The notes beneath the pieces are model-generated. The model made no database searches and had not been told where the DNA came from. It saw only the letters and a program-made list of their open reading frames with translations. A DNA stretch of 62,591 bases, filler included, from Chrysochromulina tobinii (lineage: Eukaryota), in assembly GCA_001275005.1 (NCBI GenBank). It is 11 parts of 11 records of this genome, joined end to end, with 100 filler letters (N's around TTAATTAATTAA, not from the genome) between each part and the next. Parts side by side here need not be neighbours in the genome. Positions count along the whole stretch, not along the records: positions 28,037 to 49,861 come from JWZX01000828.1; 10 more parts are not named here. The stretch is one strand, 5' to 3'. Made by a program: the position numbers and the translations under genes. The stretch's first letter is position 1. Each line of letters starts with the position of its first letter. This document shows, one piece after another, positions 2,144 to 41,594 of this stretch.

Positions 2144-3272
2144 CGGAACGAGAGGAGTTCACAGGGAGGAGTTCACAGGGTACCCACCATGCGCGACAGG
2201 GTACCCACCATGCGCGACGTCCAGCGTGACAGCCCTGCCCTTCCCCATCCCCCCCCAAGGGGCCCTCGGGCTGTCCAGCGGCGCAGCGACCACAGAGTGT
2301 GAACCATCGACGCTCGAGCGTGTTTGCGCGCGAACGCGGCTCGTCGCCTTCAAAGTTTGGGAAACTCTAGGCCCAGGAGCCAGGTTGATTCGCCGCCACC
2401 CTGTTCCTATCCGCGTTCCCCGCCCCGCTTTGGCTTTCCCACCTTTCCGGATTCCGCCTGCTCTATCCTATCGTTTTGCAGGGAGGTCTTGTATTATAGT
2501 TTTGTGTCATTGAAAAGCGGCTACTACATGCGGTCTCGTGCGTCGTGGCGCGCACGGCGCAAACTCCGATCCTGCATGAACATCAACGGCATACTCGCAC
2601 TCACGAAACGCTGACTCACGTCACTCTAGCACAACATCCGTCAACCCTTACTTGGGGCCATCCCCATGCCCATAGCACTACTGTGTGCAGCTTGCACGGC
2701 GGCAACGGCACAATCGCCCATGCGCTCACCACTCCCAACCGAACACAAGGTCGCTCCTCTAACACATCACTTCACAGATGGTCAGTTCTGTGATCACACT
2801 CGTCGTCGCCCCATCTCTGGACAACGAAAGCACGCTAGCCGCAGCTGCTCCCGCCCGAAATCCCACAGGCCGAGCGAGCCCTCGCCCCTAGTCGGCGCAT
2901 ACGCCCACCATGCCCACGACAGCGCGAGACCTCAGAGCTCGACATAGCAGCAGACTCTCCCTCTGAGCGCTGCGTCTGTCCCTCCTCCCCTCCCCATGCC
3001 TCATGTGGAACCCGAGCAGCGAAGGTCGACAAGACCCGCTGACGGTCGTCATATCATAACATCATCACACAAACGATCGCGGCCTGGCGCGGCAAACGCG
3101 CCGCCGAGCCGCGTCGAATAGCCCAGCGAGGGCAATAGCAAAGAGCATCAGCAGATCGCGGCCAAATCGGCCGACGCATGTGCCGAGCACATGGCCCCAC
3201 CCCATCTCGGGGAGGGGCACCATATTTGGTAGCAGGGCGCGATTCGTCAACGCCCTGCATTCGGCGACCTCC

Positions 3273-11605: not shown

Positions 11606-12910
11606 TTAATGAGGCGTCAGCGGCGCCCCGGACATGATCTTCTGGATGATGAGCCCGAGGGAGAGCGGCATGATGGCCAACCCGATGCACAGGAGGCCGA
11701 AGCCGACCCAGCGTGACGCCCGGTCGGGGAAGAGGAGAAAGTAGGAGGCGCCTGGGAGGATGTACGAGACGATCGTGGAGCCGGTGGCGCCAACGATGGA
11801 GAGGATCATCCCGAGGTCGTCGACCATGAAGGCGATCGAGCCCGTGCACACGACGAAGAGCGTGGTGATCGAGTAGTGCAGTACGTCCTCGTCCACGGTG
11901 GCACAGTTCTTCACAATCGACGAGAAGGCGGCGCGCGACGGGTGCGCCTGGAGCGGGTAGCAGCACGTGACGACGAGCGAGATGGCGAGGCGCGCGACGG
12001 CGACGGTGATGTTCGCCTGAGGATACGAGACGAGGATGTCCTTCGAGACGAAGCTACCGAAGGTGTAATAGCCCGAGGAGCCGAGTAGAATGTAGATGAC
12101 CAGTGCCACCGAGACCGCAATGAACGCGACCGTGGCGTTGCGCTCGCGCGTCGGGTTCGCCAGCTCGTTCGTGATCGAGAAGATGTTTTGGTGGCACGTG
12201 TACGAGAAGACGAACACCGGTAGGGCGCGCAGGATCGTCATTGGGGACTGCACCAGGACGATGGTCCCTTCGCACTCGTCCTCTTTCTCGGCGCACGCGT
12301 CAAAGTCGGGCATGAGGTCCGGGAAGGCCTTTTCGATGGCGAAGACGACGATCATGACCGTGATCAGCAGCACGCACGAGAGCGCCACCTTGGACGCGTG
12401 CTGCAGCGCCGTGATCTGCTTCATGTAGGCGAGCGGCCCCGCGACCGCGAGCGCCGCGATCGTCCACAAGCGCCGGTCGAGCCAGATTCCGGTGGCGCCG
12501 AAGGCGGCGATGGCCTTGGGTACCGAGTCGGCGATGACGATCAGGTACGACGTGGCCACGCCGAAGCACTTGATCGCCACCGCCACGTCAATGTACACGC
12601 CCGCGCCCGGCACCGCAAGCTCCGAGACGGAGCGGAAGTTGGCCGGGCGGCCGGCATAGTCGGCGGCCTCCGAAAGGCACACGAGGGCGGTGGCGGAGCA
12701 TAGGCCAAAGGCGAGCAGCATGATCGGACCCAAAAGGAAGCCGCACTGCGCGAATGCATACGGCAGCCCAAGCATACCCGCACCCAAGATGGTGTTGGAG
12801 AGGACTAAGATGCCGCCCACGAGGGGAGTACCCGAAGCAGCCGCGCCGGTCGTCGGAGGGAGGAGCGGCTGAGCGAGTGCGCCCGTCGGGGCCGTCTTTG
12901 CCCCTGGCAT
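11606..12910 (-). CDS. Amino-acid transporter (Aa_trans; AVT/SLC38-like)
   Basis: NTILGAGMLGLPYAF, IKCFGVATSYLIVIAD, FVFSYTCHQN and VGATGSTIVSYILPG; about 11 TM segments. Confidence 0.92.
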   Translation of the reverse strand: MPGAKTAPTGALAQPLLPPTTGAAASGTPLVGGILVLSNTILGAGMLGLPYAFAQCGFLLGPIMLLAFGLCSATALVCLSEAADYAGRPANFRSVSELAVPGAGVYIDVAVAIKCFGVATSYLIVIADSVPKAIAAFGATGIWLDRRLWTIAALAVAGPLAYMKQITALQHASKVALSCVLLITVMIVVFAIEKAFPDLMPDFDACAEKEDECEGTIVLVQSPMTILRALPVFVFSYTCHQNIFSITNELANPTRERNATVAFIAVSVALVIYILLGSSGYYTFGSFVSKDILVSYPQANITVAVARLAISLVVTCCYPLQAHPSRAAFSSIVKNCATVDEDVLHYSITTLFVVCTGSIAFMVDDLGMILSIVGATGSTIVSYILPGASYFLLFPDRASRWVGFGLLCIGLAIMPLSLGLIIQKIMSGAPLTPH

Positions 12911-13224
12911 CGGATCGCTCTGTAGAAACAGCAGCGGGGCGCGCTCCTCGGCTATTGATGTGCACCCGAAGGCGGTCCGAGGGCTCCGTTTCGAGATGCA
13001 GAAAATAGCCAAGTTTGGCCACGTGTCACCCGGTTGGCCGCTTCGCGATATTCATTCTCGGCGTGCACGACCCCTCCAGGCCCCGAATCTCAAAATCTGG
13101 AGTGAATCACCGCCGCCACTCGCCACGATCACGCGCAAAGTCGACGGGCAGCTAAAAGTCTATAAGAGCAAAGACGAGGACCTACAATAGTAAGGCCGCG
13201 GGGAGTGCGCGGTCGCCAGCATCA

Positions 13225-14059
13225 TTATACGGCTGCTGGCGCCTCGCCCGCGCCCTTGGTCGGCAGCTTGTCCAGGTAGCCGCTGGCTGCGGCCTGCCCG
13301 GGTGACATGATCTGCACGCGGTTCTCCTCCCTCGGCACGCCATCGGGCGGCAGTCGAACGTAGAATCCCTTTTGGTCTTCGGCCGAGTATTGCTCTGGAA
13401 GGAAGCCGCACTCGTCGATCGAAAGTGGCGCGGTGCCATCGACGCCGGCTCGGAGGCCATCAAGGCGGCGGAGCGCCTGCTGCCGCTGCGCAACCTTCAT
13501 CTCCGAGTTGGGAGGCGCGCACCATAACTGCCGAACGGAGCGAGAGACTCGAAGCACACAAGCCGCTGCTGTCAGCGAGGCACGCACAGCCGGAGGCGAT
13601 ACGACGGCCGTCCGCATGCATTCCATTCGCGCCACGAACCTCGAGTGTCTTGCTCAGGCCGATTTCGCGCGGCTGCAGCAGCTTCGCGTGCTCGAACACG
13701 AGCCGCTTCTGCACGACGGCTGCGAGGCCATAGTCGTCAGTGGCCTCCGCTCGAGCAGCGACCTTGCCGACGAACCAAAACTTGTCCTTACCAGGCGCGT
13801 GCACGTACACGTCCACCACGTTCGGCGGCGGATAGCCATCGATACGCAGCGCATTGTACGAGTTCATCTGTCGCTCAAAGTCTTTCTTGTTCAGCGGCTT
13901 CTTTGGCGCCGCCGCCTTGGGTTGCGGCGCGCCAAAGCCACCCATCGAGCAGCAGTGGCAGCGATGGGAAGTGGCGACGTTGAGCAGGCCCGGGGCCACG
14001 TGAAAGGTGCTAGAGCCGGCAGGGTAGGAGAGGAGCACGATCGCTTGGAGGAGGCGCAT
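13225..14059 (-). CDS. Putative plastid-targeted hypothetical protein, 2 exons (intron ~13529-13639)
   Basis: Signal peptide, then F-initial transit-like segment and GGFG. LE|gttcgt...ggcag|LWCAPPNSE joins ORFs 13460..14269 and 13225..13635. Confidence 0.65.
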
Positions 14060-14342
14060 GCGGCGGGATGGACGATTGTGTGTGACGTCAAGACAATCGA
14101 GATCGCGCCTCGCCAAACCCCGCAAGAAAGTGTGGGTCTCAACGTTGTCTAGCTTCAGAGACCAGCGACCCTCGCCTCCGCTGTGGAGACGAGCTGAACT
14201 ACGCCAACCCCCAGCGCCGTTGCCAAAGGCCAAGAGCGCCCACGAGAGCGTCGGGCCACCCGCGCTCACTTATGCTCAGGCCTCAGCTCTTGCAATCTTG
14301 CATAGTTGAGCTCACAGCTCTCAGCTCTCATCTCTTGCTTGC

Positions 14343-16166
14343 TCAGAGCAGTAGCGGCAGCGCGACGGCGAAGAGATCGAGGGTCGGATCGAGCTGCCGA
14401 CCCAGGCCCTCGAGCACCACGATGGCAGTGACCAACGTCGTGAAGTTGGGCTCCACCTGATGAGGGGGGCAATCACCACGATGGCAGTGAAGTTGGGCTC
14501 CACTTTGACGCGGTGCAATCAGAGGCAATTAGAGGCAATCAGAGGCAATTAGAAGTTGGGCTCCACCTTGACGCGGTGCACCCGCACCAGGGTCGTCAGC
14601 TCAAGCAGCACGTCGCCAATCTTGAGGGCCTTGAGGTTGAACGCCCCCCGAGACCCCAGACCGACGCCCTGCACGATGCGCTGCACACCCTCCTCAAAGG
14701 CCGTCGGGTCTTCACACGCGTGCTCGGGCGAGTGCTCCAGCATCAAGCGCGCTGCCTTCCGCCCGTCGCCAGCGCCCAGGGCACGAAAGAGGCGCTTGAA
14801 GTTGGCCTGCAGCACTCGGAGTGCCACGTAGTCAAGTCAAGTCAAGTCAGTCAAGTCAAGTCAAGTCAAGTGCCACGCAGGAGGAGTCGCTCGGGAGGGC
14901 ACTCTGTGAAGGGCACTCTGTAAAGGGGCACTCTGTGAAGGGGCACTCTGTGAAGGGTAATGTGATGGGGGCTCCTTTCACCTGATCTCGTGCGCTCAGC
15001 TCGACGGCGAGGCCCGCATCGACGAAACTGATTCCAAGGGGCGCGCTCGGGTCGTCCGGCGCCATGACGAGTACATTGCCTGGGTGCAGGTCTGCATGCA
15101 CGAAGTTGTGACGAAGCACCATCGTGAAGAACGCCTCGAGGCCGCGGCGAGCGAGCTCGCGATCTCGCGCGATCCCGAGCCCGAGCTGCCCCATCTCCGG
15201 CCGGAGATCGCCGCGATGTCGCTCGAGCATCTGCGAGAGCGGCGTGCCGTTGACGAAACTCTCGACGAGCACCGATCTCGCGACAAGACCTTCGTCGAGA
15301 AACGGTCGCGGGAATTGGATGGCGCCGCCGCGTTCGGAGCCAAAGTTGGCGCGGAAGCGAGCCAGATTCGTCGCCTCCCGTCGCAGGTCGAGTTGGGACG
15401 CCATGAACGCTGCGAACTCGTCTGCCGAGTCCGATAGCGCGAGCCAGCGCAGCCCACGCACAGGCAACCAGTCTTCCACCAACTTGGCAGCGGTGCGCAT
15501 CAGGTACACGTCGAGCGCCACCTGCCGGATGACGCCCGGGTGAAGTACCTTGATCGCCACCCGCTCGCCCGCGGCCGTGGCGCCGCAGTGCACCTGCGCA
15601 ATGCAGCCTGACCCGACGGGAACTGGATCGACGTGCGCAAAGAGTTTCGTCAGCGGCGCTCCGAAGGCGGCCTCGATGGTCGCGCGCGTGTGCTCGACGC
15701 TGTGCGCGGGCACGGTGTCGTGCAGCGTCGCGAGTGTGCGGCACACGGAGAGCGGCAGCACATCGGGCCGCGTTGAGGCCCACTGACCCAGCTTGATGGT
15801 GCACGGCCCTCCGCGTTGCAGTGCTCGAAGCATCTCGAGCTCGAGGCGACGCTGGAAGAACTCCGGAAGGAGGTACGCGGGAAGCAGCAGCAGCAGCGGC
15901 GGAAGCATCACGGCCCCCAGCCAAAGTGCACGCGCGATCAGACGGAGCACGTCTGCCACCGTATGCACTCGGAACGTGGAGAGCTCGTCGTCGGCCGCCG
16001 AGTCCTCACGGCGGTGGCTCGCGAGCCTCAGCACAGTCGGCGCCGGCCGTCGAGGCGGTACGAGCCACGCTCGGTCGGTCGGAGAACACGCACAGAGCCA
16101 CGGGCGCACGCGCGAGCAGCACAGAGGCGCGAGCGCCGTCGAGGAGCTCACCATGCGACGCAACAT
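14343..16166 (-). CDS. ABC1/UbiB (ADCK2-like) atypical kinase, 3 exons (introns 14807-14981 and 14457-14566)
   Basis: GPCTIKLGQWASTRPD, GSGCIAQVH, VAIKVLHP, NFVHADLHPGN, VDAGL; spliced C-terminus VEPNFTTLVTAIVVLEGLGRQLDP. Confidence 0.92.
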
Positions 16167-16279
16167 CCGCAAAGAGTTTTTCGTCCTCCTAAAACGCTCG
16201 AGTTGGAGTGTTGAGAAGAAAGTCATGTGTTGCTGATCACGTTACAGCGTGATTCACATGAAGAAAACGCAAAGAAAAC

Positions 16280-16897
16280 ATGCTTCGCCTTCTCTTTCGC
16301 CAAGCCTCCTCGATGCGCCGCGGACGATTGCCATCGCTGCCAATGGTCATCTCGCGCGGATGCTCCACCGAGGACCCCTCGCGGCGTGTGGCCGCATTCC
16401 GAGTCGCCGAGCTGCGTCGACGACTACAGGCTGAGGCGGCAGGGCCAGGCGCGAAGGTGAATGCCGAATGGATACCTGGACTGATCAAGTCGTCAGCCGG
16501 TGGCACGCCGGCACGTCTTGCGCCGGGGATGGCTGCGGAGCTGCTCTTTGAGGTCGGCTGGAACGCGCGGCACCGCTACCTCGACGTGCGGGAGCACGCT
16601 GATGGCGGCAAGGTACATGGGGCACTGCATTGCCCATTCCTTCCAGAGGCACACAGCTTCGAGGCACGCGCGAGCGACGCGCTTCGAAGCGACGGAGGCG
16701 GGATTCCCAAGGCAGCACGTGTCATCGTCGGCTGTGACGGGAGCGAGGACTCTGAGGACGCGCAGGCGGCGGTGACGATCCTGCAGCGCGCGGGGTATGT
16801 CAATGCGGTCGTCCTCGACGGCGGATTCGAGCGTTGGCGCACCGAGGGGTTGCCCGTCGAGAAGGAGGAGGAGATGATCCCAGATAGCACGCTGTGA
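16280..16897 (+). CDS. Rhodanese-domain protein
   Basis: YLDVRE..GKVHGA, IVGCDG and LDGGFERWRTEGLPVE. Confidence 0.85.
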   Translation: MLRLLFRQASSMRRGRLPSLPMVISRGCSTEDPSRRVAAFRVAELRRRLQAEAAGPGAKVNAEWIPGLIKSSAGGTPARLAPGMAAELLFEVGWNARHRYLDVREHADGGKVHGALHCPFLPEAHSFEARASDALRSDGGGIPKAARVIVGCDGSEDSEDAQAAVTILQRAGYVNAVVLDGGFERWRTEGLPVEKEEEMIPDSTL

Positions 16898-17191
16898 GTG
16901 AATCAGTACAAATCACCGCTCTTCGGACCGTTTCTCCAGGTCTACAGCCCCATTCGTATAGTACCTGTGCTGTCGTACTGCGTGGAACTGCTGCGCGCGC
17001 GGTCTCCGCGCGTTGGAGAGCCGGGAGGGCGACGAGGGTGGGTATGTTATTAATACGGGTCTGAAGTATATAAAAGATTTAGTACGATCCGCAGGGGCTG
17101 AATCCGTCCTGAATGACATGATGCAGAGTCTTCGCTGTGTCTTCACTGTGTCTTCACAGCCACTCAGTCCTATCAGCGAATCACAGCGCTG

Positions 17192-18334
17192 TCAGGACGG
17201 CCCGTATTTGGCCTCGAGCCCCCGGCGAACCATCTCCATTTGGATCGCATGACCCGTCGCCTTGTCCACCTGATGAGACTCCCGCGCCTCCGGGGGCATC
17301 GGCTCCTTACTTAGCCAGACTAGGATGACTTCGCTGTTGCCACGGCTTCCGTCTGCTTCACTGCCACCGCCGCCGCCGCCCTCGCTACCGCCGCCCTCGC
17401 CGCCGCCTTCCTCGCCGCCGCCGCCCTCGCCGCCTTCCTCACTCTTGTACCCGCGTACTTGCCATTCACTCGCCTTCCCTCGCACCCGCCAAAGACCGAT
17501 ACGGTAGCGTCGAGCATCCTTGGTGCGCGGATGGGTGAGGCACGCGCCGGAGCCCAGGTCGAAGATGTATGCATGCGCAGGGCAGCTGATGCATGGTCCA
17601 TGCGTGCTCCCTGCAAAGGCATCACTCAAATCTTCGATGTCACTCATGGCCAACGAGATCGCCGCGTGCGGGCATGCCTCCTGCACCGCCCAAAAGCTCG
17701 TCAGCCCGCGCCGCCACACGACGACACGCTCGCCCTCCCACGCCGCACACGTCGAGCGGTGGACGGCAAAGCTTTCGAAAGGGGCACCCACTCCAGCCGC
17801 CTCCCCAGCCGCCTCCCCAGCCGCCTCCCCAGCCGCTGATCCAGCTGCTGCTCCAGCCGCTGCTCCAGCCGCTGCTCCAGCCGCTGCTCCAACGCTCGTC
17901 GCGTCGCTCGTCGCATTGCTCACCGCCTCGGCCGTCGCCTCGGCCGTCGCCTCGTTTATGACGGTGACCGTGTGCACGTGCACGTAGCTCGTTTCGATGC
18001 GGCCGCGTAGCAGCGCTAGCCGCAGCTGCAGCCGCAGCTCACGCTCTTTGTCGCCGAGCAAAGCAAGCGAGGGTGGTGGGAGGGGCTTCGCGTGCGCGGC
18101 CGGTGCAGAGTGCTCAGAGGTTGCGGCTGACGATGCAGCGGGCGCAACGGACGTCACCACTGGCGCGACGGCTGACTCGACGTTGGAAGGATCGGTGCGA
18201 GGCATCGGCTCTCGCGGTGAAAGGTGGTTGTGAAGGCGGTGGCGAAGGCGGCGGTGGCGAGGGTGATGGGCAGGCGGTGGCGGCGAGGGAGGCGGGTAGG
18301 TAGGGGGAGGGTTTAGGGAGGTTTCCTGGCCCAT
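17192..18334 (-). CDS. Rieske [2Fe-2S] ferredoxin-domain protein with low-complexity linkers
   Basis: CPH...CISCPAHAYIFDLGSGAC Rieske ligand motifs; start codon uncertain. Confidence 0.8.
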   Translation of the reverse strand: MGQETSLNPPPTYPPPSPPPPAHHPRHRRLRHRLHNHLSPREPMPRTDPSNVESAVAPVVTSVAPAASSAATSEHSAPAAHAKPLPPPSLALLGDKERELRLQLRLALLRGRIETSYVHVHTVTVINEATAEATAEAVSNATSDATSVGAAAGAAAGAAAGAAAGSAAGEAAGEAAGEAAGVGAPFESFAVHRSTCAAWEGERVVVWRRGLTSFWAVQEACPHAAISLAMSDIEDLSDAFAGSTHGPCISCPAHAYIFDLGSGACLTHPRTKDARRYRIGLWRVRGKASEWQVRGYKSEEGGEGGGGEEGGGEGGGSEGGGGGGSEADGSRGNSEVILVWLSKEPMPPEARESHQVDKATGHAIQMEMVRRGLEAKYGPS

Positions 18335-18513
18335 GTTTACAGGTCCCTGCACTCGGAGGACCGCTCATGCCATGCACTCGTGCTCACGGGACAGTTCTCA
18401 GGGAAGGTCTCCAAACTTACGCGACTTACGCGTCGAAACAGAGTAGACCCAAATCTCCGAAAAAGAGTCTCGCTTCTTTTTCTATTTGTAGTCTGCAAGC
18501 TGAGTGGATTTCA

Positions 18514-19167
18514 ATGAAAGCGAGGCGACAAAACCCCGCCCAGGACGCGCAGCGCGACGCCCTGAAGCGCATCCTCTTGTGCAAGAAGGAGAGGAAGTGG
18601 CAGGACGCCATCGCCATCCTCTCAAAAGCACGAATGGAAGGTGCCCCGCTCTCGACCGTCTCGTACAATGCGGCCATTGATTGCTGCAGCAAGTCCAAGC
18701 AAGTCCGGGTGGCGCTCGAGCTCTTCGACGAGCTCGTGTGCGTGGGCAACTTCCCGGATGCGGTCACCTATACCACGCTCATCGACGCGTGCGGCCGCGC
18801 GGGCCACCTCGACCAGGCATTCGCCCTCTTTAGCCGGTGAGCCCATGCCCGTCTCTGGATCGGTCGAGAACCTCCGCGCCCATCTGGCGCCGAACCGCGG
18901 CCGCGCCGCGCAAGGGTCGTTTAGGGCCGAGCTGGGCTCTGCGGCGCGCCCGAACGCCCCGCGCGCCCTCGTCGCCCGTCGCCTCCGCAGCGGCGTGGTT
19001 GCCGGCGCCTCATGATGGTGGTGCTGCTGCTGCTCATGACTGCGCCATCGAGTGTTCCTCCGCGTGGCCGCAGCATGCAACTGGCCAACGTGGCGCCCAA
19101 CCTGATCACGTACAACGCGCTCATCCATGCGTGCGCGACGGTGGGCGCCACGGACGCGGCGTTCCAG
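18514..19167 (+). CDS. Pentatricopeptide-repeat protein, 3'-truncated by contig end (intron 18837-19073)
   Basis: Repeats VSYNAAIDCCSK, PDAVTYTTLIDACGRAG and PNLITYNALIHACA. Confidence 0.9.
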
Positions 19168-19351
19168 GTGCGTTGTGCCCTCGACCCTGTGGAACCGTCC
19201 CCCCCCCCGTCCCCCCTCCGCCCCCTATGGACCCGTCCCCCCTCCGCCCCCNNNNNNNNNNNNNNNNNNNNNNNNNNNNNNNNNNNNNNNNNNNNTTAAT
19301 TAATTAANNNNNNNNNNNNNNNNNNNNNNNNNNNNNNNNNNNNNNNNNNNN

Positions 19352-19880
19352 CTTGCCGCTCCACTTAGAGTTCACTGGCTACGGCAGCTTGCCACTTGGC
19401 CCGGCGCCTGACGGCCTCGGCAGCTTGCCGATCGGCACGGCGCTCAGCGACCACTACGGCTCGCCGCTCGGCTTGGAGCTCGATTGCTTAGGCAGCTTGC
19501 CGCTAGGTAGACGCTCGACGGCCTTGACGGCTCGCCCTTCGGCTCAGGGCTCGATTGCTAGAGCTCGCCGCTCGGGTCGCGCTTGACAGCTACGGCAGCT
19601 TGCCTCTCGGTCGCCTCTTGTATCGGCACTCGAGTGCTTTTTGGCAGCTTGCCACTCTGTGACTCGCTCGACGTCCTCGAAGGCTTGCCACTTGGCTCAG
19701 CGCTTGTTGCGCTTGACGGCTTCGGCAGCTTGCCGATCGGCACGGCGCTCAACGACCACTGCGGCTCGACGCTTGGCTAGGAGCTCGATTGCTTTGGCAG
19801 CTTGCCAATTGGCTTGGCGCTTGACGGCTTCGGCAGCTTGCTGCTCGGCTTGGAGCTCGACGGCCTCGGCAGCTGGCCCC
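19352..19880. repeat. Degenerate ~33-bp minisatellite (GGCAGCTTGCC-core)
   Basis: Recurrent ggcagcttgcc..(c/t)ggc..gcgct.gacggc units; reading frames are broken. Confidence 0.75.
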
Positions 19881-30540: not shown

Positions 30541-32844
30541 CTAACGCGCCGACTCGCCGCTGCCCTGCTGCGCGATCCATTCCAATCGAGCCGCCTCCTT
30601 CTTGGCTGCCCGCTCCTGCTTCCGAGCCATCACCGCTGCATGCGCTGCCGCGGCCTCACCCTCTTTGTCGGCCGCCTCGCCAACCTTGTCGGCGACCAGA
30701 CGCTTCTGAGTGGCCACGCGTTTGGCCGTGGCTCCTCCGATGGCCGCCTTGGCTTCGGCCTGCTCCGCTTCCAACTTGGAGGTTTCGGCCTTGAGGCGCG
30801 CCGCTTCGGCGTTATCGGCGAGGCGCACAGCCTTGAGCCGTTCAGCTTCAGCCTTCTCGGCGGCCGCCGTCTTCCTCGCCTCCTCGGCCCTCTTTTTCTC
30901 CCTCATTGGGTTGGTCTTCTTCCGAGCGGCTCCCCCTCGGGCGTGTGCTTGAATGGTCTCCGTCGCCTCTGCTCGCTGCTTAGCCTTCTTCCTGCCCCTC
31001 TTGCCCCGTGCGCGAGACTGGATCTTGACGGCCGACGGCCCTCGTCTCCTGGCCTCTTCGGCCTCAGCATACTCGGCGGCAGCCACACGCACAGCCTCCG
31101 CCTCCTCGGCAGCCACACGCACAGCCTCCGCCTCCTCGGCAGCCACACGCACAGCCTCCGCCTCCTCGGCAGCCACACGCACAGCCTCCGCCTCCTCGGC
31201 TGCCACACGCACAGCCTCCGCCTCCTCGGTTGCCACACGCTCCGCCTCCGCCTCCTCGGTTGCCACACGCACAGCCCCCGCCTCCTCGGCTGCCACACGC
31301 ACAGCCTCCGCCTCCTCGGCTGCCACACGCACAGCCCCCGCCTCCTCGGCTGCCACACGCACAGCCTCCGCCTCCTTGGTTGCCACACGCTCCGCATCCG
31401 CATCCTCGGCTGCCACACGCCCAGCCTCCGCCTCCTCGGCTGCCACATGCTCAGAAAGTTTCTCCTCGGCTGGCTCATGATGCCCAGAGTCTGCGGCAGT
31501 CTCCGTATCCACGTGATCCACATGCTTGGCCTCCTGTGTGGACTCGTCACCTGCCGCCTCCTCTGTGGCTACATTCACCTCCCTGTTCACCTCTGAGGCT
31601 GCAATCACCTGCACATTCACCAGCGTCGCCTCTTCTGCAGAGGACTCCTTCGACTCTTCCTTAGTTGGCTGATCCTTTGGCACTTCCCGAGCTGGCGTTA
31701 GAACCGGAGCTGTGCGGAGCTCCGACATCTCTCCATGCTCGTCGGGGATGTCCTTGTGTGTGTCCTGTCTCGTCTCCTCGTCCTGAACCACGATCGTATC
31801 CACAATCGTCCCCACTGCCTCCTGAATCGCCAGATGCTGGGCGGGCGCCTCGCTTCCCGGCGGCAAGTGCGACGCCACATCAGCCAGAGCAGTATTACCA
31901 TCCTCAGTGCCAGCACTGTACCTATCACTGTGCCTATCACTGTGCCGCTTGCTATCTGACCGACGAGGCTCTTCGTGCTGTAACGGAGACAGGTAAGACT
32001 TGGCGAGCGTCTCATCACTGCGAGTGCGCGTGCGAGCGCGAGTGTAACTAACAGGCGTTCTGGCCTCCAGCATGCCTTCCCCCCCTTGATCCTGCTGACG
32101 GCTGCCTTCTGTAAGCCCTTCTGCATTTGGAGGCTTGATCGAGGTGGCTGACACCATCTCCTCCATCACGCCATCACTACGTCGGTGACTATCGTCAAGG
32201 AAAGCGACGGTGCTAGGCGTCCTGGCCCTCGGCTCGGCCGTCCTGCTACTTGCTGCCAGATCCAGAACGACAGCTGGGTCAGCGCTAAGGTCCTTGCTAA
32301 GGTCAGCGCCTTCGTCCGCGACCTTCATCGCTACATGTACCAGGAAGAGCTCATCCTTCTCCTCGAGCAACGGCCGCCGCATTGCGCGGGAGGCTCGCCG
32401 GGAAGAGGGCAGGGGCTTGAGACTTGTAGGTGGACGCGAGAGATCACCGAAGAGCATCTCGTGGATGAGCGTGCCAGAGGTCAAAGGCCGACCGTCGAGG
32501 CCGAATGGGGTTGGCGGAGGGAGTTCGAAGATCTTTGAGCATGGAGGTAGCTTCAGCCTCGGGGTGATCCCTCGTGAAACCAGCCCTCGATCTAGCCGAC
32601 GCATTTCAGGCGAGCCGTTGGCGATCCGCACGGTCAGCAGGCGCGACAAGCTCGCTGCTCGTCTGGTTGCCCACACACGGCGCTCAGCTTGAAGTTGTTG
32701 CAGAGTCAATTGGAGATGCCTCGGATCATCAGCTTTTGACGAGGCTGATCTGAGATGTGCGAGCCGAGGAGATTTAACTCTGGGCGAAAATGAACCTCTG
32801 ATCGGACCGAGTGGCGACAACACATCGATGTTCAGGCGTTCCAT
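30541..32844 (-). CDS. IQ-motif (calmodulin-binding) protein with Ala/Glu repeats
   Basis: IQSRARGKRGRK and IQAHARGGAARK; about 12 copies of EEAEAVRVAA. Confidence 0.7.
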   Translation of the reverse strand: MERLNIDVLSPLGPIRGSFSPRVKSPRLAHLRSASSKADDPRHLQLTLQQLQAERRVWATRRAASLSRLLTVRIANGSPEMRRLDRGLVSRGITPRLKLPPCSKIFELPPPTPFGLDGRPLTSGTLIHEMLFGDLSRPPTSLKPLPSSRRASRAMRRPLLEEKDELFLVHVAMKVADEGADLSKDLSADPAVVLDLAASSRTAEPRARTPSTVAFLDDSHRRSDGVMEEMVSATSIKPPNAEGLTEGSRQQDQGGEGMLEARTPVSYTRARTRTRSDETLAKSYLSPLQHEEPRRSDSKRHSDRHSDRYSAGTEDGNTALADVASHLPPGSEAPAQHLAIQEAVGTIVDTIVVQDEETRQDTHKDIPDEHGEMSELRTAPVLTPAREVPKDQPTKEESKESSAEEATLVNVQVIAASEVNREVNVATEEAAGDESTQEAKHVDHVDTETAADSGHHEPAEEKLSEHVAAEEAEAGRVAAEDADAERVATKEAEAVRVAAEEAGAVRVAAEEAEAVRVAAEEAGAVRVATEEAEAERVATEEAEAVRVAAEEAEAVRVAAEEAEAVRVAAEEAEAVRVAAEEAEAVRVAAAEYAEAEEARRRGPSAVKIQSRARGKRGRKKAKQRAEATETIQAHARGGAARKKTNPMREKKRAEEARKTAAAEKAEAERLKAVRLADNAEAARLKAETSKLEAEQAEAKAAIGGATAKRVATQKRLVADKVGEAADKEGEAAAAHAAVMARKQERAAKKEAARLEWIAQQGSGESAR
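31073..31447. repeat. 30-bp coding tandem repeat (~12 copies)
   Basis: GCCACACGCACAGCCTCCGCCTCCTCGGC(A/T) units. Confidence 0.92.
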
Positions 32845-33167
32845 TGTGCTGAAGAATCCGTTACAATTACTATGAGTTTGCATGCACTGAGTCCACTCTC
32901 TTCCGGAAGCGGATCGACACGAGCCGGCTCTCCGAGTAGCGATCCGAGTGTCAACAGCCAATGCACAGCCAAAAAATTAGAAATTCTCCCGACGCCTGTA
33001 AAAACCTAAAGAGTACAACAATCATGCGTCCTTCCAAGATAATTCCGAGTAGGAGATCCGTCACACGCCTGCAATTTGCGCCCTGCCATAGATTCCTCGA
33101 GTATTGACAGCCAATTCACAGCCACATTGGTTGCTCTTCCCATTCACACTTCAAGGGCTTCATTGAC

Positions 33168-35195
33168 ATGGCTTCATTGTCGGTCTCTCCGGGCGGTACG
33201 CTCGAGCTGCGGCTGCCGCTGCGCGTCGTGCTGCTATCGGCCGGTTCGGCAGCTATTGCATGGACGCTTGCGTTGGGCCTCTACACACGTCGTCGCGGGC
33301 GATATGCGCCAGCTACCTCGTCGGAGGACTTCGTGCGCTCCGGCGTTGCCATCCTCCGGTGGCTGACCAACTATCGGAGCCGCACGTGCCGTCAGTTGCC
33401 AATCGTCTCGACGGTCGCACCCAACTATCTACGTGACTCACTCCCGGCAACTGCTCCCGAGGAGCCCGAGCCCTTCAGCAACATCCTGAGCGACCTGAGC
33501 GAGAAAATCTTACCTGGTCTTACGCACTGGGAGAACAGTGCAAGCTTCTTCGCTTACTTCAAGCCTCACTCATCGTACCCCGCGGTGCTCGGCGAGCTCG
33601 TCTGCGCGGGGCTAAATGTCATGGGCTTTGACTGGATCGCATCGCCCGCATGTACCGAGCTCGAGGTCGTTACGCTCGACTGGCTCGGCAAGCTCTTGCA
33701 ACTTCCCGAACGATTCCTATCGTGCTCAGCCGGCCCCGGAGGCGCGGTCATCCAAGGGAGCGCGGGCGAGGCGGCCATCGTCATCCTGCTTGCGGCCACG
33801 CGCCGCGCGCAGAGCCGTCGCGCGGCGGCCAGCCGCAGTGCAGGTGCCCCGCTCCTCGGTGGTGCAGGCGCCACTGCCGACGCCTGCACAGGCGCCGCAG
33901 CAGACGACGTCGGACGGAGCCGCTGCGTGGTCTACTGCTCGGACCAGACGCATGCCATCATCAAGAAGGCGTGCATGGTCCTCGGCCTTCGCTGCCGGGC
34001 GCTGCCCACTTCAGTCGAGACTGGTTTCACCTTACGAGGCGAAGTGCTTGCCGCCGCCATCGATGCAGATCTCGCAGATCTCGCAGAGAACTGGCTGCCC
34101 GTCGCCGTGGTCGGCACGAGTGGCACGACGACCTCGTGCGCCTTCGACCCGCTCGACGAGCTCGCTGATGTGTGCACCCCGCGTGGTCTGTGGCTCCACG
34201 TCGACGCAGCGTACGGAGGCGCATATGCATGCCTCGACGAGGTACGGCCTCTTTTCGCCGGCCTCGAGCGCTGCGACTCGTTTTGCGTCAACGCGCATAA
34301 GAAGCTGCTCGTGCCCTTTGACCTGGCGGCGCTGTACGTGGCCGACCGGCGCCCGCTGCTCCACGCGCTCAGCCTCACCCCCGAATACCTGCGTAATGAC
34401 GCCTCTGAGTCGGGCGCCGTTGTCGACTATGAGCATTGGCAGCTTGGGCTCGGCCGTCGCTTCCGCGCGCTGAAGCTTTGGTTTGTGATGCGCCGCTTCG
34501 GCGCGTCGGGCGTGCGCGCGCACGTGCGCGCGGGGATGGTACTTGCACGTCGCTTTGCCGATCTCGTCGCCACCTCTGAGGTCTTCGAACTTGCGGCGCC
34601 GCCCTCGCTCTCGCTCGTCTGCTTCCGCCTCATGCATGCTCGCGTGCCGCATGGCTCCGAGGACGACGACGCTCTGCATATGGAGTTTCTCGCACGTGCG
34701 AAGGCGCGAAATGTCTTCATCATTCGTTCGCGTCTCGGCGGTCGCCTCATCTTACGCTTTGCCTGCGGCGGCATCGAGCAGACGGTCCAGGAGGTTGAGA
34801 GGGCCTTTGAGATCCTCCGCGCAGTGGCCAGGGATTGGATGGCCAGCACTATGATGACTTTCAGAGACGTTGCTCAACACTTTGGCAACTCGATCGCCGC
34901 AAACAACTACCCAGCCGCCTTCGAGCTGCTAACGCCTGAAGCTCAGGCCGTTTACTCACCCGAAAGCCTGAAGGCAGCGGTGGCTTCCATGACCTGTGCC
35001 GCCCCAGGAGGGATTCAAGAGGTGGAGGTGATCGAGGAAGGGATTTTGGAAGATTGGCCCGCCAAGCAACCTGGGGATGTCGCGAGCGTCTACGTGGCGT
35101 TGACAGGTGCTGGCTTTGCTGAGGCCGTGGCGGTGATCGTTGTGCAGCGCAATTGCAACCTTCTGATCCGACATCTGGAATGGGGAAGACCGTAA
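33168..35195 (+). CDS. PLP-dependent aromatic L-amino-acid decarboxylase (group II) with N-terminal hydrophobic anchor and extra ~115-aa C-terminal domain
   Basis: PGLTHW..FFAYF, WIASPACTELE, GTTTSCAFDPL, HVDAAYGG, NAHK (PLP Lys), LGRRFRALKLWFVMR. Confidence 0.92.
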   Translation: MASLSVSPGGTLELRLPLRVVLLSAGSAAIAWTLALGLYTRRRGRYAPATSSEDFVRSGVAILRWLTNYRSRTCRQLPIVSTVAPNYLRDSLPATAPEEPEPFSNILSDLSEKILPGLTHWENSASFFAYFKPHSSYPAVLGELVCAGLNVMGFDWIASPACTELEVVTLDWLGKLLQLPERFLSCSAGPGGAVIQGSAGEAAIVILLAATRRAQSRRAAASRSAGAPLLGGAGATADACTGAAADDVGRSRCVVYCSDQTHAIIKKACMVLGLRCRALPTSVETGFTLRGEVLAAAIDADLADLAENWLPVAVVGTSGTTTSCAFDPLDELADVCTPRGLWLHVDAAYGGAYACLDEVRPLFAGLERCDSFCVNAHKKLLVPFDLAALYVADRRPLLHALSLTPEYLRNDASESGAVVDYEHWQLGLGRRFRALKLWFVMRRFGASGVRAHVRAGMVLARRFADLVATSEVFELAAPPSLSLVCFRLMHARVPHGSEDDDALHMEFLARAKARNVFIIRSRLGGRLILRFACGGIEQTVQEVERAFEILRAVARDWMASTMMTFRDVAQHFGNSIAANNYPAAFELLTPEAQAVYSPESLKAAVASMTCAAPGGIQEVEVIEEGILEDWPAKQPGDVASVYVALTGAGFAEAVAVIVVQRNCNLLIRHLEWGRP

Positions 35196-36729: not shown

Positions 36730-37053
36730 GATCGCCGGATCGCCGTGAAGACTCGGCCGTGCGTGTGAACGTTAACACGCGACAACCGTGTGTTTGAACG
36801 TTAACGCGACTGACGCGACAACCGGTGCTACGGCACTGTTACTGCCTGCTCAGGATACACACACCTTACGAGACACGGAGCATGCGTGAAGATCGCCGTG
36901 AAGGACAACTTCAGTGTAAGAACTTGACAGAACCTGACAGAACCTGACAGAACCATCATTATCGCTCATGCCGATGCGTCTCGCCTTCAAAAGAGTTGGG
37001 CGCAAGCTGCGAGCACGGTTGGATGCTTGATTTCACATCTAGTTCATCAGCGA

Positions 37054-40000
37054 TCAGGTGCGAAGCCCCAGTTCCACAAGAATCGACCTGTTGTGCTCAA
37101 TACTGGCCAGATTCTGTTTCTCATATTCAGATAGGCTATCCTCTGGCAGAAGATCGTCAGTGCCACGCAACGGCATGTACTTGGCGAAGGGCACACCAAG
37201 CTTTGAGAGACGTGGTTCAAGCCAGCAAGGCGGACCGGTGTGGCCAGCACTGCTGCTGCTGCTCCCTGAGCTTGATGAGCTGCCTCCAAGAGATGTGGTG
37301 CCTCTGCAGACGGCTGGAGCTTCCAGGCTCGCATAGAGCCTATCACGCGGGCCAGGCTTACCTATCGCAGCGAGGACCTCGACAGTGAACGCTTCAAACA
37401 CGTTCAGACAAATTGTCTGTGCCACAGCTGTATACTGCACCTGCAATGTGCCCACCAGCCGAGGCCGCTCCTCAGGTCTGAAGCTGAACGAGGCAAGAAT
37501 CTCGTCCGGGTGCAGCTTGCGCAAGTCGCCTGTGTTCAGCTCCTTGATCTCATGCACTGTGAGCGGCGTCTCCCGTGTCTCGAAGGCGCGGGACACGCAC
37601 AACAGCGTACCTGGCGTCTTGAGCGAGCCGTACGAGCTCGTGGGCGAGCGCGCCCCTGATGGCCAGCCCAGGCCGACAACATGTGAGTGCTCATTGGCGA
37701 GCTTGAATTGAGTCGCGTTCAAGAATAGGTCCAGCCCAGTCGTGGTACTATATGGCTTGAGTACCGAACGCAATGCTGCGGGTTTGTTGGCTTGCGGTGG
37801 TGGCGGGGTGAATCGGTCGAAAGCAGCCTTGTCACGAAAGCCGACCAGCACCAGCCGCTCACGCACATTGGCACAACGAAAATGACTGCCAGAGACCACA
37901 AAGACCTTGACATAGTACCCAAGCTTTTTCAGGTGGTCGAGGCTGAGGAAGTTGAGGAGGTTTGGCACATTCTCGCAAATCAGGCACGGGTCGTAGATCC
38001 CAGCAGCAAGACGAGCCTGCAGCGCCTGAGCCATAAGTGAAAAGTTGTCACCGAAGGTTTCGTCCTTGAAACCGAGCCGCTTCCCTTCAGTTGAGAAGGG
38101 TTTGCAGCAGAAGCCACAATAGACTATCGTCGCTGGACGGGCGACAGATGCGTCGGTACCCATCTTTGAGATGTTGTCCAACGGCGCGTGCCTAAAGTCA
38201 AAGGTGGCCAGGTAGGCTGCCCGTGCTTCCGGATCAATGTCGCATGCACCGATGCACGCACCGCCTGCACGGTGACCGACCCTAGTAAAACCGCCGCACG
38301 GCCCGTGGGCCCAATCCATGAATGTCCATGCCGCTGCCGAGTACTCGTTGTCGGCGACCCACTTCTCGACGATCGACAGCTGCGGCACCACGGTGCGGCG
38401 CCAGATGGGAGTGCGGGTGCCATTGCGGCAATCGATGAAGCAATCAGTGCAACTAGCACACAAGACCTCGGTCACGACGCTCTCTGCATCTGCCTCCAAA
38501 CTCTTTATGTGCCAGCCCGAATTGAAACGCTGGGCGCAGCTAATATGCACCACATTCTTGCAGCCTTCGCCCTGCCCGCCACATAGCACCAAACCATCAA
38601 TCAGCTGTGGGTTGTGGCAGCCAGCTGCAGTACACCGCCAGCCCTTTTGCTTGATGGTTTTCTGAATTGACTTTGAGCGGTTGGAAAAAGACCACTGATC
38701 CATCAGGCACGTGTGGCAGCCAGAATTCTGACTGCAAAGCCGCTCTGCATTGTGCCGTTTGGCAGCTGACGGACGCTTCCCTCCACCAAATTCGATTGCA
38801 TCGTTGAACTTTAGGCACGAGATATGTGCCCATTCGCCATCAGAACGCTGCCGCATCATGCCATCACCACGTGCACACAGGCAGCACACGGCAGGCATCC
38901 CTGTGCCTTGCACATGCGTGCAGTGATCGCAAGTAAATCGCATGTTCTTGGCGGCCGAGCGTCCAAACAATGGCCCATGTCTGGGCTGGCCGTAGCAGAA
39001 GAGGTGGACTGGCACACCACAAGCATCACAGAAGATGATCTCGTTCGCATCACCAGGCTCCGAGCCGATGCGCTGGTCCAGTGTGCAACATACAGCGCAC
39101 GCACGCATCTGCTCCTCGAGCAGCTGAGCACTTGGCTTGTTGCACAGCACGCCGTACAAGCATGTGCAAATAGCCCGCCAGTCTGCACATGCAACCTGCC
39201 CGGCGGAGCGATTCACGAGCCACTGGACCTTAATCTCAACATCGTCCAGATCCTCGCACTGCGTTAGACCATCATCGTAATTGATAAGGACAGTATTGCG
39301 GCCAGCCGGAGCAGCATCGTAGTTGACGTTGCCCCAATACCATTCTTTATCTCCATCCCAGTACACGCGCACGCGGGAGGCAAGCAGCTTGCGGCATCGC
39401 GAGTGAAGGTATGCCGTGCAGCCAGGCCGTATGCAAGGGGAGGGTGCCTCTCCCTCATGCTCGCAAACCACCACCTCGCCTTCATTCTTGAAGTGGCTCG
39501 GCTCCACAAGGTTTGCACGGGCAGTGCCATCCGACGCGAAGTCATTAGGATTGCCCTCCCCGCACACGAGGCACGGCCGTTGGAAGTCCAGCTGGCACCC
39601 ATGTGATTGGCATCGCCATCCTAATCGCTTATCGGTGTGAGCGCACGTCACGCTCGGATCACCTTCCTTTAACAGCTCGGGCACGCGCCGCACGCGCTCG
39701 CAATGAGCGTTGCACACTCGCATTCCCTTCACCACCGGATGGTCGGCAGTGGCGGGCGAATGGCATGATGGAACGTTGCATAAGGGTTTGCTTTTGAATT
39801 TTGCAACGATGGGAGTAGCGGGGAGCTTTGCTGGCCGGCGAGCTTGCTTGCTGATCGCAATCGTTACTGCACCGCCGGATGCAACGTTGGCACCAATTGC
39901 CACCGTGGAGCATGCTGCGACAGAGCACGATGTCTCGGCTGCAGTCTCAAGGCTGCTCACGCGGCACACAGTCGACTGCTCCCGAGTTTGCCTTGGATGA

Positions 40001-40365
40001 TAGCCTGGTACGCTGAAACGGCGGCACAGCAGCCATCGCCTGGCTATGACTGGGACTGGGAGCTCGCCTGGCTGCTGAGACTCGGAGCCGCTCAGGCGAG
40101 CTGGATGAATCAAAACCGGGAAGAAGGGAATTCCAAGAGGATCTGTTGCCTGTGGGCACTCGAAAGAAAAATTATCGCCGTCGAACCAGAACTTTTGTCC
40201 ATCGCTGAACTCAATACGATGCTCCAAGTGCCTATCATAGATTTGCGTGTCCACAATCATGCCCTGCTTCCACCGATTGCCCAACAAATTGTTGCGACCA
40301 AACGCCATTTTTCCAATGTCATCATGGTGCGGCTCACCTCTCTTCGCTCTCTTCGCTCCATTCAT
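37054..40365 (-). CDS. C5-cytosine DNA methyltransferase fused to Tudor, ADD-like and PZP (PHD-knuckle-PHD) domains
   Basis: MTase motifs FMDWAHGPCGGF (I), CDID (II), GFCCKPFS (IV), ENV (VI), RERLVLVG (VIII), LRKLHPDE (IX). Tudor RVRVYWDGDKEWYWG..INYDDG; PHD NEIIFCDACGVPVHLFCYG; knuckle CCLC..GEWAHISC. Confidence 0.85.
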   Translation of the reverse strand: MNGAKRAKRGEPHHDDIGKMAFGRNNLLGNRWKQGMIVDTQIYDRHLEHRIEFSDGQKFWFDGDNFSFECPQATDPLGIPFFPVLIHPARLSGSESQQPGELPVPVIARRWLLCRRFSVPGYHPRQTREQSTVCRVSSLETAAETSCSVAACSTVAIGANVASGGAVTIAISKQARRPAKLPATPIVAKFKSKPLCNVPSCHSPATADHPVVKGMRVCNAHCERVRRVPELLKEGDPSVTCAHTDKRLGWRCQSHGCQLDFQRPCLVCGEGNPNDFASDGTARANLVEPSHFKNEGEVVVCEHEGEAPSPCIRPGCTAYLHSRCRKLLASRVRVYWDGDKEWYWGNVNYDAAPAGRNTVLINYDDGLTQCEDLDDVEIKVQWLVNRSAGQVACADWRAICTCLYGVLCNKPSAQLLEEQMRACAVCCTLDQRIGSEPGDANEIIFCDACGVPVHLFCYGQPRHGPLFGRSAAKNMRFTCDHCTHVQGTGMPAVCCLCARGDGMMRQRSDGEWAHISCLKFNDAIEFGGGKRPSAAKRHNAERLCSQNSGCHTCLMDQWSFSNRSKSIQKTIKQKGWRCTAAGCHNPQLIDGLVLCGGQGEGCKNVVHISCAQRFNSGWHIKSLEADAESVVTEVLCASCTDCFIDCRNGTRTPIWRRTVVPQLSIVEKWVADNEYSAAAWTFMDWAHGPCGGFTRVGHRAGGACIGACDIDPEARAAYLATFDFRHAPLDNISKMGTDASVARPATIVYCGFCCKPFSTEGKRLGFKDETFGDNFSLMAQALQARLAAGIYDPCLICENVPNLLNFLSLDHLKKLGYYVKVFVVSGSHFRCANVRERLVLVGFRDKAAFDRFTPPPPQANKPAALRSVLKPYSTTTGLDLFLNATQFKLANEHSHVVGLGWPSGARSPTSSYGSLKTPGTLLCVSRAFETRETPLTVHEIKELNTGDLRKLHPDEILASFSFRPEERPRLVGTLQVQYTAVAQTICLNVFEAFTVEVLAAIGKPGPRDRLYASLEAPAVCRGTTSLGGSSSSSGSSSSSAGHTGPPCWLEPRLSKLGVPFAKYMPLRGTDDLLPEDSLSEYEKQNLASIEHNRSILVELGLRT

Positions 40366-40676
40366 TGGTGCGGCGGCGGTGGCGGCGGCGGTGCGGCGCA
40401 AGCCTCGTGCAGACCCCGCGTGCAGACTCCCTCCGATGCGGGGACGCTCGGTGTGTGTACCCGCACTGCTCTGTGGGGAGATGTACTGTACCAAAATGTT
40501 TCGGCGACTAAGGGCGTTCGTTATTCGAAAGAGATCACAATCTTTTTGTGCGGTGCCCACGTCGGCGCCCCCGCGCGATACCGGTAAACGGCTCCCCCGG
40601 TGTCTTTTTACCGGTAAACGGATCTGACTTGCGCGACCCACGTCTCGGCTGTGGTCGTCTCGGAACAGGGCGCTGG

Positions 40677-41005
40677 ATGCCGAAGAGTTTGAGACCGAAC
40701 CTCTATCGCACGATCAAGATCGTCATGTCGGACGGCGCCACATTCCGCGTGCCGAGCGCCGTGCGCACCGTGGGCAACACGCTGCAGCTTGATCGCGACC
40801 CCGCAAATCACCCCGCCTACTTGGTGAGAGCGGCCGCCTCCCTTGCGCAAAGCCCGTGTGCAACCGAAGCTCACCGCGAGTCATCACCACCGCGTCCTGT
40901 TCTGCTGTGCAGGGTACGACCGATCAGTCGGGTATGCTTGGTCGTCGCGAGGAGCAGCGCCTTGAGCGAGTGCGGACCAAAACCAAGCAGGACCTCTTCG
41001 ATTAG
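40677..41005 (+). CDS. Organellar (probably mitochondrial) ribosomal protein bL31, intron 40824-40912
   Basis: MPKSLRPNLYRTIKIVMSDGATF...LQLDRDPANHPAYL|GTTDQ... matches the bL31 pattern (V.MSDG.TF, L.LD.D...HP.W/Y.G). Confidence 0.75.
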
Positions 41006-41594
41006 TGAGTGTTGTGTAGGCAAGCGACACGCGTACGTGTGCCGTGTACACATACAGTGAACGTTAACGATCCAGATGCCACGCTCTGCCTGACGCCGAT
41101 TGCATGCGGGTCTCTTCACTCGGAAGCGTGCGGCGTGAGAACCAGAGATCCACCTCTTAGCTCTTACCTCTTTATTATTGACGCGGACCCGCGGCGCGGA
41201 CCCTGCAGGGCCCAAGGGGGCCGGGGCACATGCGATGCGACCGATGCCTCTCAGATGCCTCTGCCTCTCCTTTACGCTGCGCCATGCGCTCTTTCAGATC
41301 TCGCGGTCGCGGCCCGCGGACTCGCAGTAGTATAATGCACGCCGGCGGTGCTTAGCCGCGCGCACCCACGCGATCCCCTGGGAGCTGGGTCGCTGCACTG
41401 GGTCGCCTCCGAGGCGACCTTCGAGAGCGCCCGTCTAAGCTCTTCTAAAAAGGACGTGAGTCACCGGGTTGTCACCGGTCCGCCGGCTACACCGCACACT
41501 ACCTCTACCGGTACCTGAAGTCCGCCGTCCTCGGCCCCGCCTCGGATCTCCAGAAAAACTTGCTTAGAATAGTCGTCGAGCTCGTGTGCAAAAG

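Follow-up and report, generated by a model that had tools for sequence, protein, structure and literature searches.

A Chrysochromulina tobinii open reading frame joins an HhaI-like C5 cytosine methyltransferase to chromatin-reader modules and probably represents a DNMT family of its own

DNA methylation in eukaryotes is usually explained by DNMT1, DNMT3, and DNMT5, among which DNMT3A/B follow an established scheme, in which a reader with a methyl-lysine cage and a zinc-finger reader of histone H3 precede a compact methyltransferase. Beyond these enzymes, a 2025 survey describes orphan DNMTs as lineage-specific and generally devoid of companion domains, and ties such domains to DNMTs that act on DNA, the RNA-associated DNMT2 and DNMT6 being without them (PMC12344493). 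Some members of DNMT5 carry Tudor or PHD domains (PMC9998398). Here we describe P0001, a protein encoded in a 62,591-nucleotide stretch of Chrysochromulina tobinii DNA (assembly GCA_001275005.1; hereafter the window), within the part that comes from JWZX01000828.1. P0001 fuses a C5 methyltransferase to a PHD-zinc knuckle-PHD (PZP) cassette and a Tudor with an aromatic cage, and it contains additional zinc and Tudor-like modules. The reader-fused enzyme is real and conserved, its catalytic residues are invariant, its domain folds are predicted by modeling, and it probably belongs to a family of its own.

The gene occupies positions 37054-40365 on the minus strand and reads through as a single frame of 1103 amino acids with no internal stop, in agreement with the intronless open reading frame (ORF) of about 1100 residues reported in the preliminary description; every motif quoted there was located (residues 31-39, 49-56, 196-324, 331-366, 423-639, 751-758, 798-800, and 835-837). 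The model and the alignments of relatives give the domain order as a Tudor-like barrel, a disordered linker, a zinc module, a split PHD with an inserted Tudor, the PZP, the methyltransferase, a hairpin, and a helix. Pfam recognizes DNA_methylase at residues 690-957 (E 2.6e-16), zf-HC5HC2H_2 (E 8.7e-7), and PHD (E 4e-4), and a PDB sequence search ranks the PHF14 PZP first (E 3.2e-11), followed by BRPF1, JADE1, and M.HhaI. Loci L001 and L002 are 100% and L003 is 99% identical to P0001, and the gene occurs in sequencing runs from freshwater, lakes, or mixed cultures. Allele L003 differs from the window gene by 15 synonymous and 11 non-synonymous changes that leave the catalytic residues unaffected. 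A polyadenylated (polyA) contig covering 36988-38959, about residue 470 to the stop codon, shows no splice joint; the possibility that RNA data would divide the ORF into separate genes is thus answered for the part from the PZP to the stop, which is unsplit.

The domain folds come from an alignment-based model of P0001 (117 rows; mean predicted local distance difference test score, pLDDT, 75.8) whose alignment included 26 non-family methyltransferases and may bias it toward the HhaI type; a single-sequence fold (pLDDT 31) was discarded in its favor. Approximately residues 15-70 (40156-40323; this and all features of P0001 lie on the minus strand) are predicted to form a Tudor-like β-barrel that is conserved in 10 aligned relatives and is followed by a disordered linker (residues 72-190). 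The earlier assignment of this block as a first Tudor stands in part: the model places five barrel-like strands at pLDDT 82-94 and HHalign compares it with the Tudor of a sister clade, introduced below, at a probability of 50% (E 1.6e-4), a modest support, while Pfam and PDB sequence searches returned no match. Next comes a zinc module (39595-39780; C196-x4-C201, H209-P210, C218-x2-H221, a helix, and C252-x4-C257) with ligands invariant in the 10-12 covering rows of alignment A5. HMMER searches of Pfam and the PDB found no ADD domain in it, and “ADD-like” denotes resemblance only; the module was folded as part of the whole model, for which the fold lists were occupied by methyltransferase matches, and the ESM Atlas offered sub-threshold Tudor/PHD leads (0.79).

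The alignment of relatives then reveals six ligands, C265, C268, C311, C316, H321, and C324 (39394-39573), whose C4-H-C3 spacing suggests the first part of a split PHD-type finger; C400-x-C402 (39160-39168), present in 11/12 covering A5 rows, likely supplies its final two ligands. Between them, within the Cys array, sits the second Tudor (39211-39384), an RDM15/PDS5-like module that was correctly anticipated: its profile matches the RDM15 Tudor (7DE9, E 3.1e-7), and HHalign pairs it with PTM/DIR17-type Tudors at a probability of 96.7%. Its cage residues W336, Y343, and Y363 and acidic D365 are kept in 14/14, 11/14, 13/13, and 12/12 relatives, respectively; the RDM15 cage comprises W616, Y623, Y641, and D643 (PMC8184781). 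The PZP (residues 419-644; 38434-39111), also named in the preliminary description, is upheld by Pfam, by the PHF14 sequence match, and by predicted-fold matches to AF10 (Z 13.4, root-mean-square deviation [rmsd] 3.1, 165 aligned), PHF14 (Z 12.9), and JADE1 (Foldseek E 8.5e-9). A complex prediction for the methyltransferase and the zinc/Tudor2 module scored 0.01, with the alignment not used and the partner fold uncertain.

The compact methyltransferase domain spans residues 676-1005 (37351-38340) and is identified by Pfam PF00145 (60.4 bits versus a curated cut-off of 22), by profile, and by the model, in which the C5 fold is complete at pLDDT of about 90-98 and superimposes on M.HhaI with Z 29.8 (rmsd 2.5, 288 aligned) at a sequence identity of about 20%. 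A profile made from the family-only alignment A4 (an earlier one, A2, included one non-family row) ranks M.HhaI at 65 bits, M.MpeI at 48, Dcm at 43, DNMT2 at 29-33, and DNMT1 at 24-25 in the PDB; none of its 47 matches at E up to 10 is DNMT3, DNMT5, DIM-2, or DRM2. The view that the enzyme is HhaI-like rather than DNMT1/3/5-like is therefore sustained, and the ESM Atlas returned only the DNA_methylase cluster for this domain.

P0001 has company. Candidate scoring passed 6 of 7995 candidates, one near-identical cluster and five at 39-53% identity, and an exhaustive search added P0058 to the reader-fused relatives. PHD1 and motif IV stand in one ORF in P0003-P0007 and P0058 (six clusters, 39-53% identical), and Pfam finds both readers and enzyme in P0040; orthologs do keep the fusion, as the preliminary description required of a genuine family. 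The exhaustive search also uncovered a sister clade (clade B: P0075, P0077, P0079, P0091, and P0153) in which the same enzyme follows a different front end. Its Tudor resembles the second Tudor of P0001 (HHalign 95.7%), and a GNAT domain is weakly detected in P0075, P0077, and P0079 (Pfam E 0.014-0.027; KAT2A E 0.046); if this match holds, clade B is an acetyltransferase-methyltransferase fusion. An MBD-like reading of one block in clade B proteins was dropped when searches gave no match, and P0075 and P0077 have EEV in place of the motif VI ENV. A search for longer fusions recovered three members, all already known. Pattern-seeded searches, by which absence is not proven, found no family member in prokaryotic genomes or in viral contigs, the latter yielding weak matches of 24-51% over short pieces; phage matches are 26-34% identical.

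The finished tree (71 hand-picked rows, 313 columns) resolves a two-clade family on a long stem: clade A, which includes P0001, is supported at 100/98, clade B at 100/99, and the two together with two fragments at 100/98, with a stem of 0.92. A first tree kept 102 rows after 25 near-duplicates and rows covering <120 core columns were left out, approximately unbiased (AU) tests used 41 rows, and the trees contained no named DNMT1-6 sequence. P0056/P0117, a candidate sister seen in the first tree, vanished in a 71-row tree and returned weakly (69/80) in the finished one; its grouping with the family is not rejected (AU p 0.74), its own origin was searched for and not found, and the giant-virus methyltransferases retrieved group elsewhere. 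Independent acquisition of the enzyme from a prokaryote or virus, proposed at the outset, is unproven: the searches turned up no close member among prokaryotes or viruses, the sister is placed at 69/80, and a sister relationship with DNMT6-like eukaryotic rows is not rejected (AU p 0.56). The GFPCQxFS signature, called prokaryotic in the preliminary description, also occurs in these DNMT6-like eukaryotic rows.

The last two results bring in the rival that survives best, although we regard it as unlikely: the family could have branched from the old eukaryotic DNMT6 lineage, evolved fast, and acquired readers, and it could methylate chromatin-associated RNA or a rare DNA target, not the bulk genome. 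One clade of family plus DNMT6-like rows is compatible with the AU test just cited; the DNMT6-like rows are HhaI-like too (P0175) and have the ENVP motif in common with the family; the predicted fold ties with DNMT2 enzymes; and DNMT6 is suspected of acting on RNA (PMC12344493, PMC7463849). Yet in the finished tree the DNMT6-like rows group by themselves (99/95), separate from the family, published DNMT6 proteins carry no chromatin domains (PMC12344493, PMC9998398), and a PZP combined with a caged Tudor points to nucleosomes. The DNMT6 label itself was inferred from architecture and HhaI likeness set against published domain tables.

Whether the enzyme works is the second issue, since its motifs depart from the canon much as first described. 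The catalytic C754 of motif IV (38092-38115) and the Glu of motif VI ENV (E798; 37966-37974) are present in 34/34 family domains, and both Arg of motif VIII (R835-x-R837; 37855-37863) in 32/32 covering rows, an invariance that spans branches of up to 1.7 changes per site; also retained are the glycines of motif I and the acidic residue of motif II. Across the family, the canonical motif I Phe, motif IV Pro, and motif X Gly-Asn are replaced, in P0001 by A686, C753, and A982-Q983, and the S-adenosylmethionine (SAM) pocket residues F18, P80, and L100 of HhaI correspond to A686, C753, and N774. C753 is kept in 22/24 clade A domains, N774 in 24/24, and H687 in 15/16; Pro-Cys persists in 9/10 clade B domains, and Cys replaces the motif IV Pro also in one prokaryote-type row, P0081. 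The divergent members P0043, P0066, P0123, and P0162 have Ala-Cys, Pro-Cys, and Ser-Cys in motif IV; the position preceding the catalytic Cys has therefore been altered on several occasions within the family.

Deviation in all four SAM-contact motifs (I, IV, V, and X), together with a terminal helix that could recruit partners, would suit a catalytically poor or dead, DNMT3L-like reader scaffold whose role would be to bind or flip cytosine and bring in other enzymes. We think this quite improbable, and the suggestion of a dead scaffold in the preliminary description is not supported, because the nucleophile and the three residues that hold the base stay unchanged across deep divergence, the sister clade included, and because the pocket changes fall largely where active DNMT5 deviates. 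Active DNMT5 has F18, W41, P80, and L100 replaced, which has been argued to make SAM binding regulatable, and S. pombe DNMT2 likewise lacks the motif IV Pro (bioRxiv 10.1101/2021.10.01.462825); loss of this residue is tolerated.

A paralog at L004-L007 shares 53% identity with P0001 in the enzyme and 39% in the readers, and is interrupted by two GT..AG introns (103 and 93 nucleotides), both spliced in one polyA contig from 1/4 runs. The two genes probably reside in one organism, as the L007 assembly prefix is that of L002, which matches the window. P0001 branches outside the paralog's subclade in the 102-row tree; therefore, the duplication is old. The contrast in introns raises the question of whether, in a functional family, the copy without introns is a retrocopy on which selection has relaxed, or has itself been silenced, leaving the work to the intron-bearing paralog. 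Positions 37054-40365 also have the lowest GC (57%), third-position GC (GC3, 0.63), and observed/expected CpG (0.88) of the 14 window ORFs measured. A retrocopy is nonetheless very unlikely: the frame is open in L001-L003 and P0002, the allele differences are more synonymous than non-synonymous, the gene is present in a polyA library, the duplication is old, and P0003, P0005, and P0058 are single long ORFs, too. CA/TG is raised in the gene, and its low GC and CpG could, judging from composition, reflect either weak codon bias or deamination driven by methylation of the gene itself. A different C5 chemistry (another donor or group) in the remodeled pocket is hardly credible even though the pocket changes are clustered and fixed and the C5-carboxymethyltransferase 8yf3 has the same fold, for 8yf3 scores 28 bits versus 65 for M.HhaI and the neighborhood holds no sign of a modifying pathway.

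On balance, we judge it probable that P0001 is an intact-core C5 methyltransferase and likely an active nuclear DNMT, steered by its PZP, caged Tudor, and zinc/Tudor-like modules to nucleosomes with particular H3-tail states. We posit that the PZP would hold the unmodified H3 tail, and possibly nucleosomal DNA, by analogy with PHF14, BRPF, and JADE PZPs, readers that bind unmodified H3 (PMC8421203), while the Tudor2 cage would bind a methyl-lysine. The enzyme would then flip a cytosine, C754 would attack C6, and a methyl group would be transferred from SAM while E798, R835, and R837 hold the base. Because F18, P80, and L100 are lost and these positions are changed in active DNMT5 too, the enzyme probably binds SAM weakly, with binding gated until it engages chromatin.

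Several observations weigh against this reading. Both activity and binding are predictions made from sequence and model. Asp645, the second RDM15 Asp that selects monomethyl-lysine, is L367 in P0001 and Asp in only 4/12 covering rows; therefore, the histone mark cannot be read off the P0001 Tudor. The DNMT5 parallel does not extend to the loss of the motif X Gly-Asn, which affects both clades, or to the motif I His and insertion, and at the DNMT5 W41 position the Ile of P0001 (I710) is nothing special, as 36/49 non-family rows have it. DNMT2-type tRNA enzymes match the predicted fold almost equally well: EhMeth (Z 27.4) drew level with M.MpeI and M.HhaI in one search, and in a second search DNMT2 enzymes came about 2 Z units lower. 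RNA contigs cover the 5′ part of the ORF in pieces, none spans it whole, and, being contigs, they could include DNA carry-over. Finally, the HhaI-like DNMT6 of Leishmania is accompanied by undetectable DNA methylation (PMC7463849).

Downstream of the enzyme, a small β-hairpin leads to a conserved C-terminal helix (residues 1078-1101; 37063-37134), seen in the model and in the relatives' alignment and kept in most clade A C-termini, some members being without it. PDB searches with the helix gave no informative match. It is a possible partner-binding helix, which may be akin to the HELLS-binding helix of CDCA7. The CDCA7 helix binds CC2 of HELLS/DDM1 (PMC11343034, PMC12718391). A bolder and decidedly more tentative reading than that of an active, nucleosome-steered DNMT would derive the family, separately from DNMT1-6, by domestication of an HhaI-type enzyme of prokaryotic or viral source; it would have convergently rebuilt a DNMT3-like reader front end (ADD-like zinc module plus inserted Tudor, and PZP) and a DNMT5-like gated SAM pocket, its helix would recruit DDM1/HELLS in trans, and its sister clade would unite a GCN5-like acetyltransferase and a methyltransferase in one chain.

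The surroundings of the gene are those of a eukaryotic chromosome. A small, strongly covered neighbor at 40642-41075 (+), divergent from the methyltransferase gene, contains an 89-nucleotide GT..AG intron spliced in three runs; the neighbor-gene GT..AG intron at 40822-40912 is spliced in 3/4 RNA runs, marking the window as eukaryotic. Other window ORFs with Pfam matches are ordinary transporters and enzymes, a neighboring major facilitator superfamily (MFS) protein has an exact match in EukProt, no transposon or viral hallmarks appeared among 30 ORFs scanned, and Rfam has no match in the window. Just downstream of the stop (36800-36990), numerous unrelated RNA contigs match about 36790-36870 before they diverge, a pattern suggestive of a short dispersed repeat, and in one run 36913-36987 is swapped for 42 other letters. 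Farther away, a pyridoxal-dependent decarboxylase ORF at 33168-35195 (+) has about 100 extra C-terminal residues without a Pfam family, which could stem from a fusion or from read-through into a further gene, and a tandem repeat of an approximately 30-base unit (31077-31454) lies inside an IQ-motif ORF (30541-32883). In the paralog at L006 7971-11784, a stop in the last exon cuts the terminal helix about ten codons short of its usual end; relative to L006, RNA contigs carry a 9-nucleotide insertion at 11718. Next to it are an open frame of >2500 codons (12155-19783, -), of which the 1666 amino acids scanned have no Pfam match, and an ORF with five ShK-like repeats (1798-3024, -).

The family is probably undescribed. 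Its architecture is absent from two DNMT surveys, as far as their excerpts go: the orphan-DNMT section of PMC12344493 does not list a PZP architecture, and the supplementary domain table of PMC9998398 has 0 rows with PF13832, PF13831, PF13771, or PF00583 and 4 with PF00628, none in this layout. Full-text literature searches found no paper describing the family, although the Prymnesium parvum orphans or eight Emiliania huxleyi “DNMT6” proteins might include members; P. parvum has none of DNMT1/3/5 and three orphans (PMC12344493, supplementary table). In this family, an orphan-type, bacterial-looking enzyme is integrated with chromatin: its readers are conserved, the duplication is old, transcripts are spliced, and two subfamilies differ in their front ends. 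If active, it would add another way of guiding DNA methylation by histones and offer a compact, testable model of how an enzyme becomes wired to histone marks, and it could explain 5-methylcytosine in lineages scored as lacking DNMT1/3/5.

Among known systems, the M.HhaI type (PF00145; PDB 10mh, 2uyh) is the best profile and fold match along the full length of the methyltransferase, small target-recognition domain included, and shares the catalytic Cys, ENV, and RxR; unlike it, the family is fused to eukaryotic chromatin readers, has replaced F18, P80, L100, and the motif X Gly-Asn, and includes a paralog with spliceosomal introns. Pfam finds neither the BAH nor the RFTS domain of DNMT1/CMT/DIM-2 in P0001 at E up to 0.1. 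DNMT2 is marked by a CFT signature in its target-recognition domain; CFT..Y occurs in none of the collected proteins, and P0001 has companion domains. DNMT3A/B share the logic of readers placed before a compact enzyme, but P0001 has PZP and Tudors and no PWWP or ADD match, and its methyltransferase profile misses DNMT3 at E up to 10. DNMT5 (Cryptococcus, prasinophytes, and haptophytes) shares replaced SAM-pocket residues, including the Pro of Pro-Cys, yet P0001 has no SNF2 ATPase/RING match and no profile match to DNMT5, its fold compares at Z 18.9 versus 27-30 for HhaI, and its ORF ends 98 residues past the methyltransferase with no helicase match and with the stop covered by the polyA contig. 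The defining features of DNMT1, 2, 3, and 5 are missing from the family. DNMT6 (trypanosomatids, diatoms, haptophytes, and others) is, like the family, eukaryotic, compact, and HhaI-like, and differs in having none of the chromatin domains that P0001 displays as PZP and Tudor. PHF14, BRPF1, JADE1, and AF10 have the same PHD-knuckle-PHD cassette by sequence and predicted fold, and the PZP proteins treated in PMC8421203 serve acetyltransferase, DOT1L, or demethylase systems as readers or subunits, without fusion to a DNA methyltransferase in any case described there. The Arabidopsis RDM15 Tudor, from a protein that also acts in DNA methylation (PMC8184781), shares with Tudor2 the three-residue aromatic cage and the first Asp; in P0001 this module interrupts a zinc finger in the same chain as the enzyme and has Leu for the second Asp. 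ChloroDNMT, with its PWWP, and the raphidophyte DNMT1/4-like enzyme, with a single PHD about 580 residues upstream of the methyltransferase domain (PMC9998398), carry readers other than those of P0001 and, compared here by their descriptions, are precedents for a restricted DNMT lineage gaining a reader.

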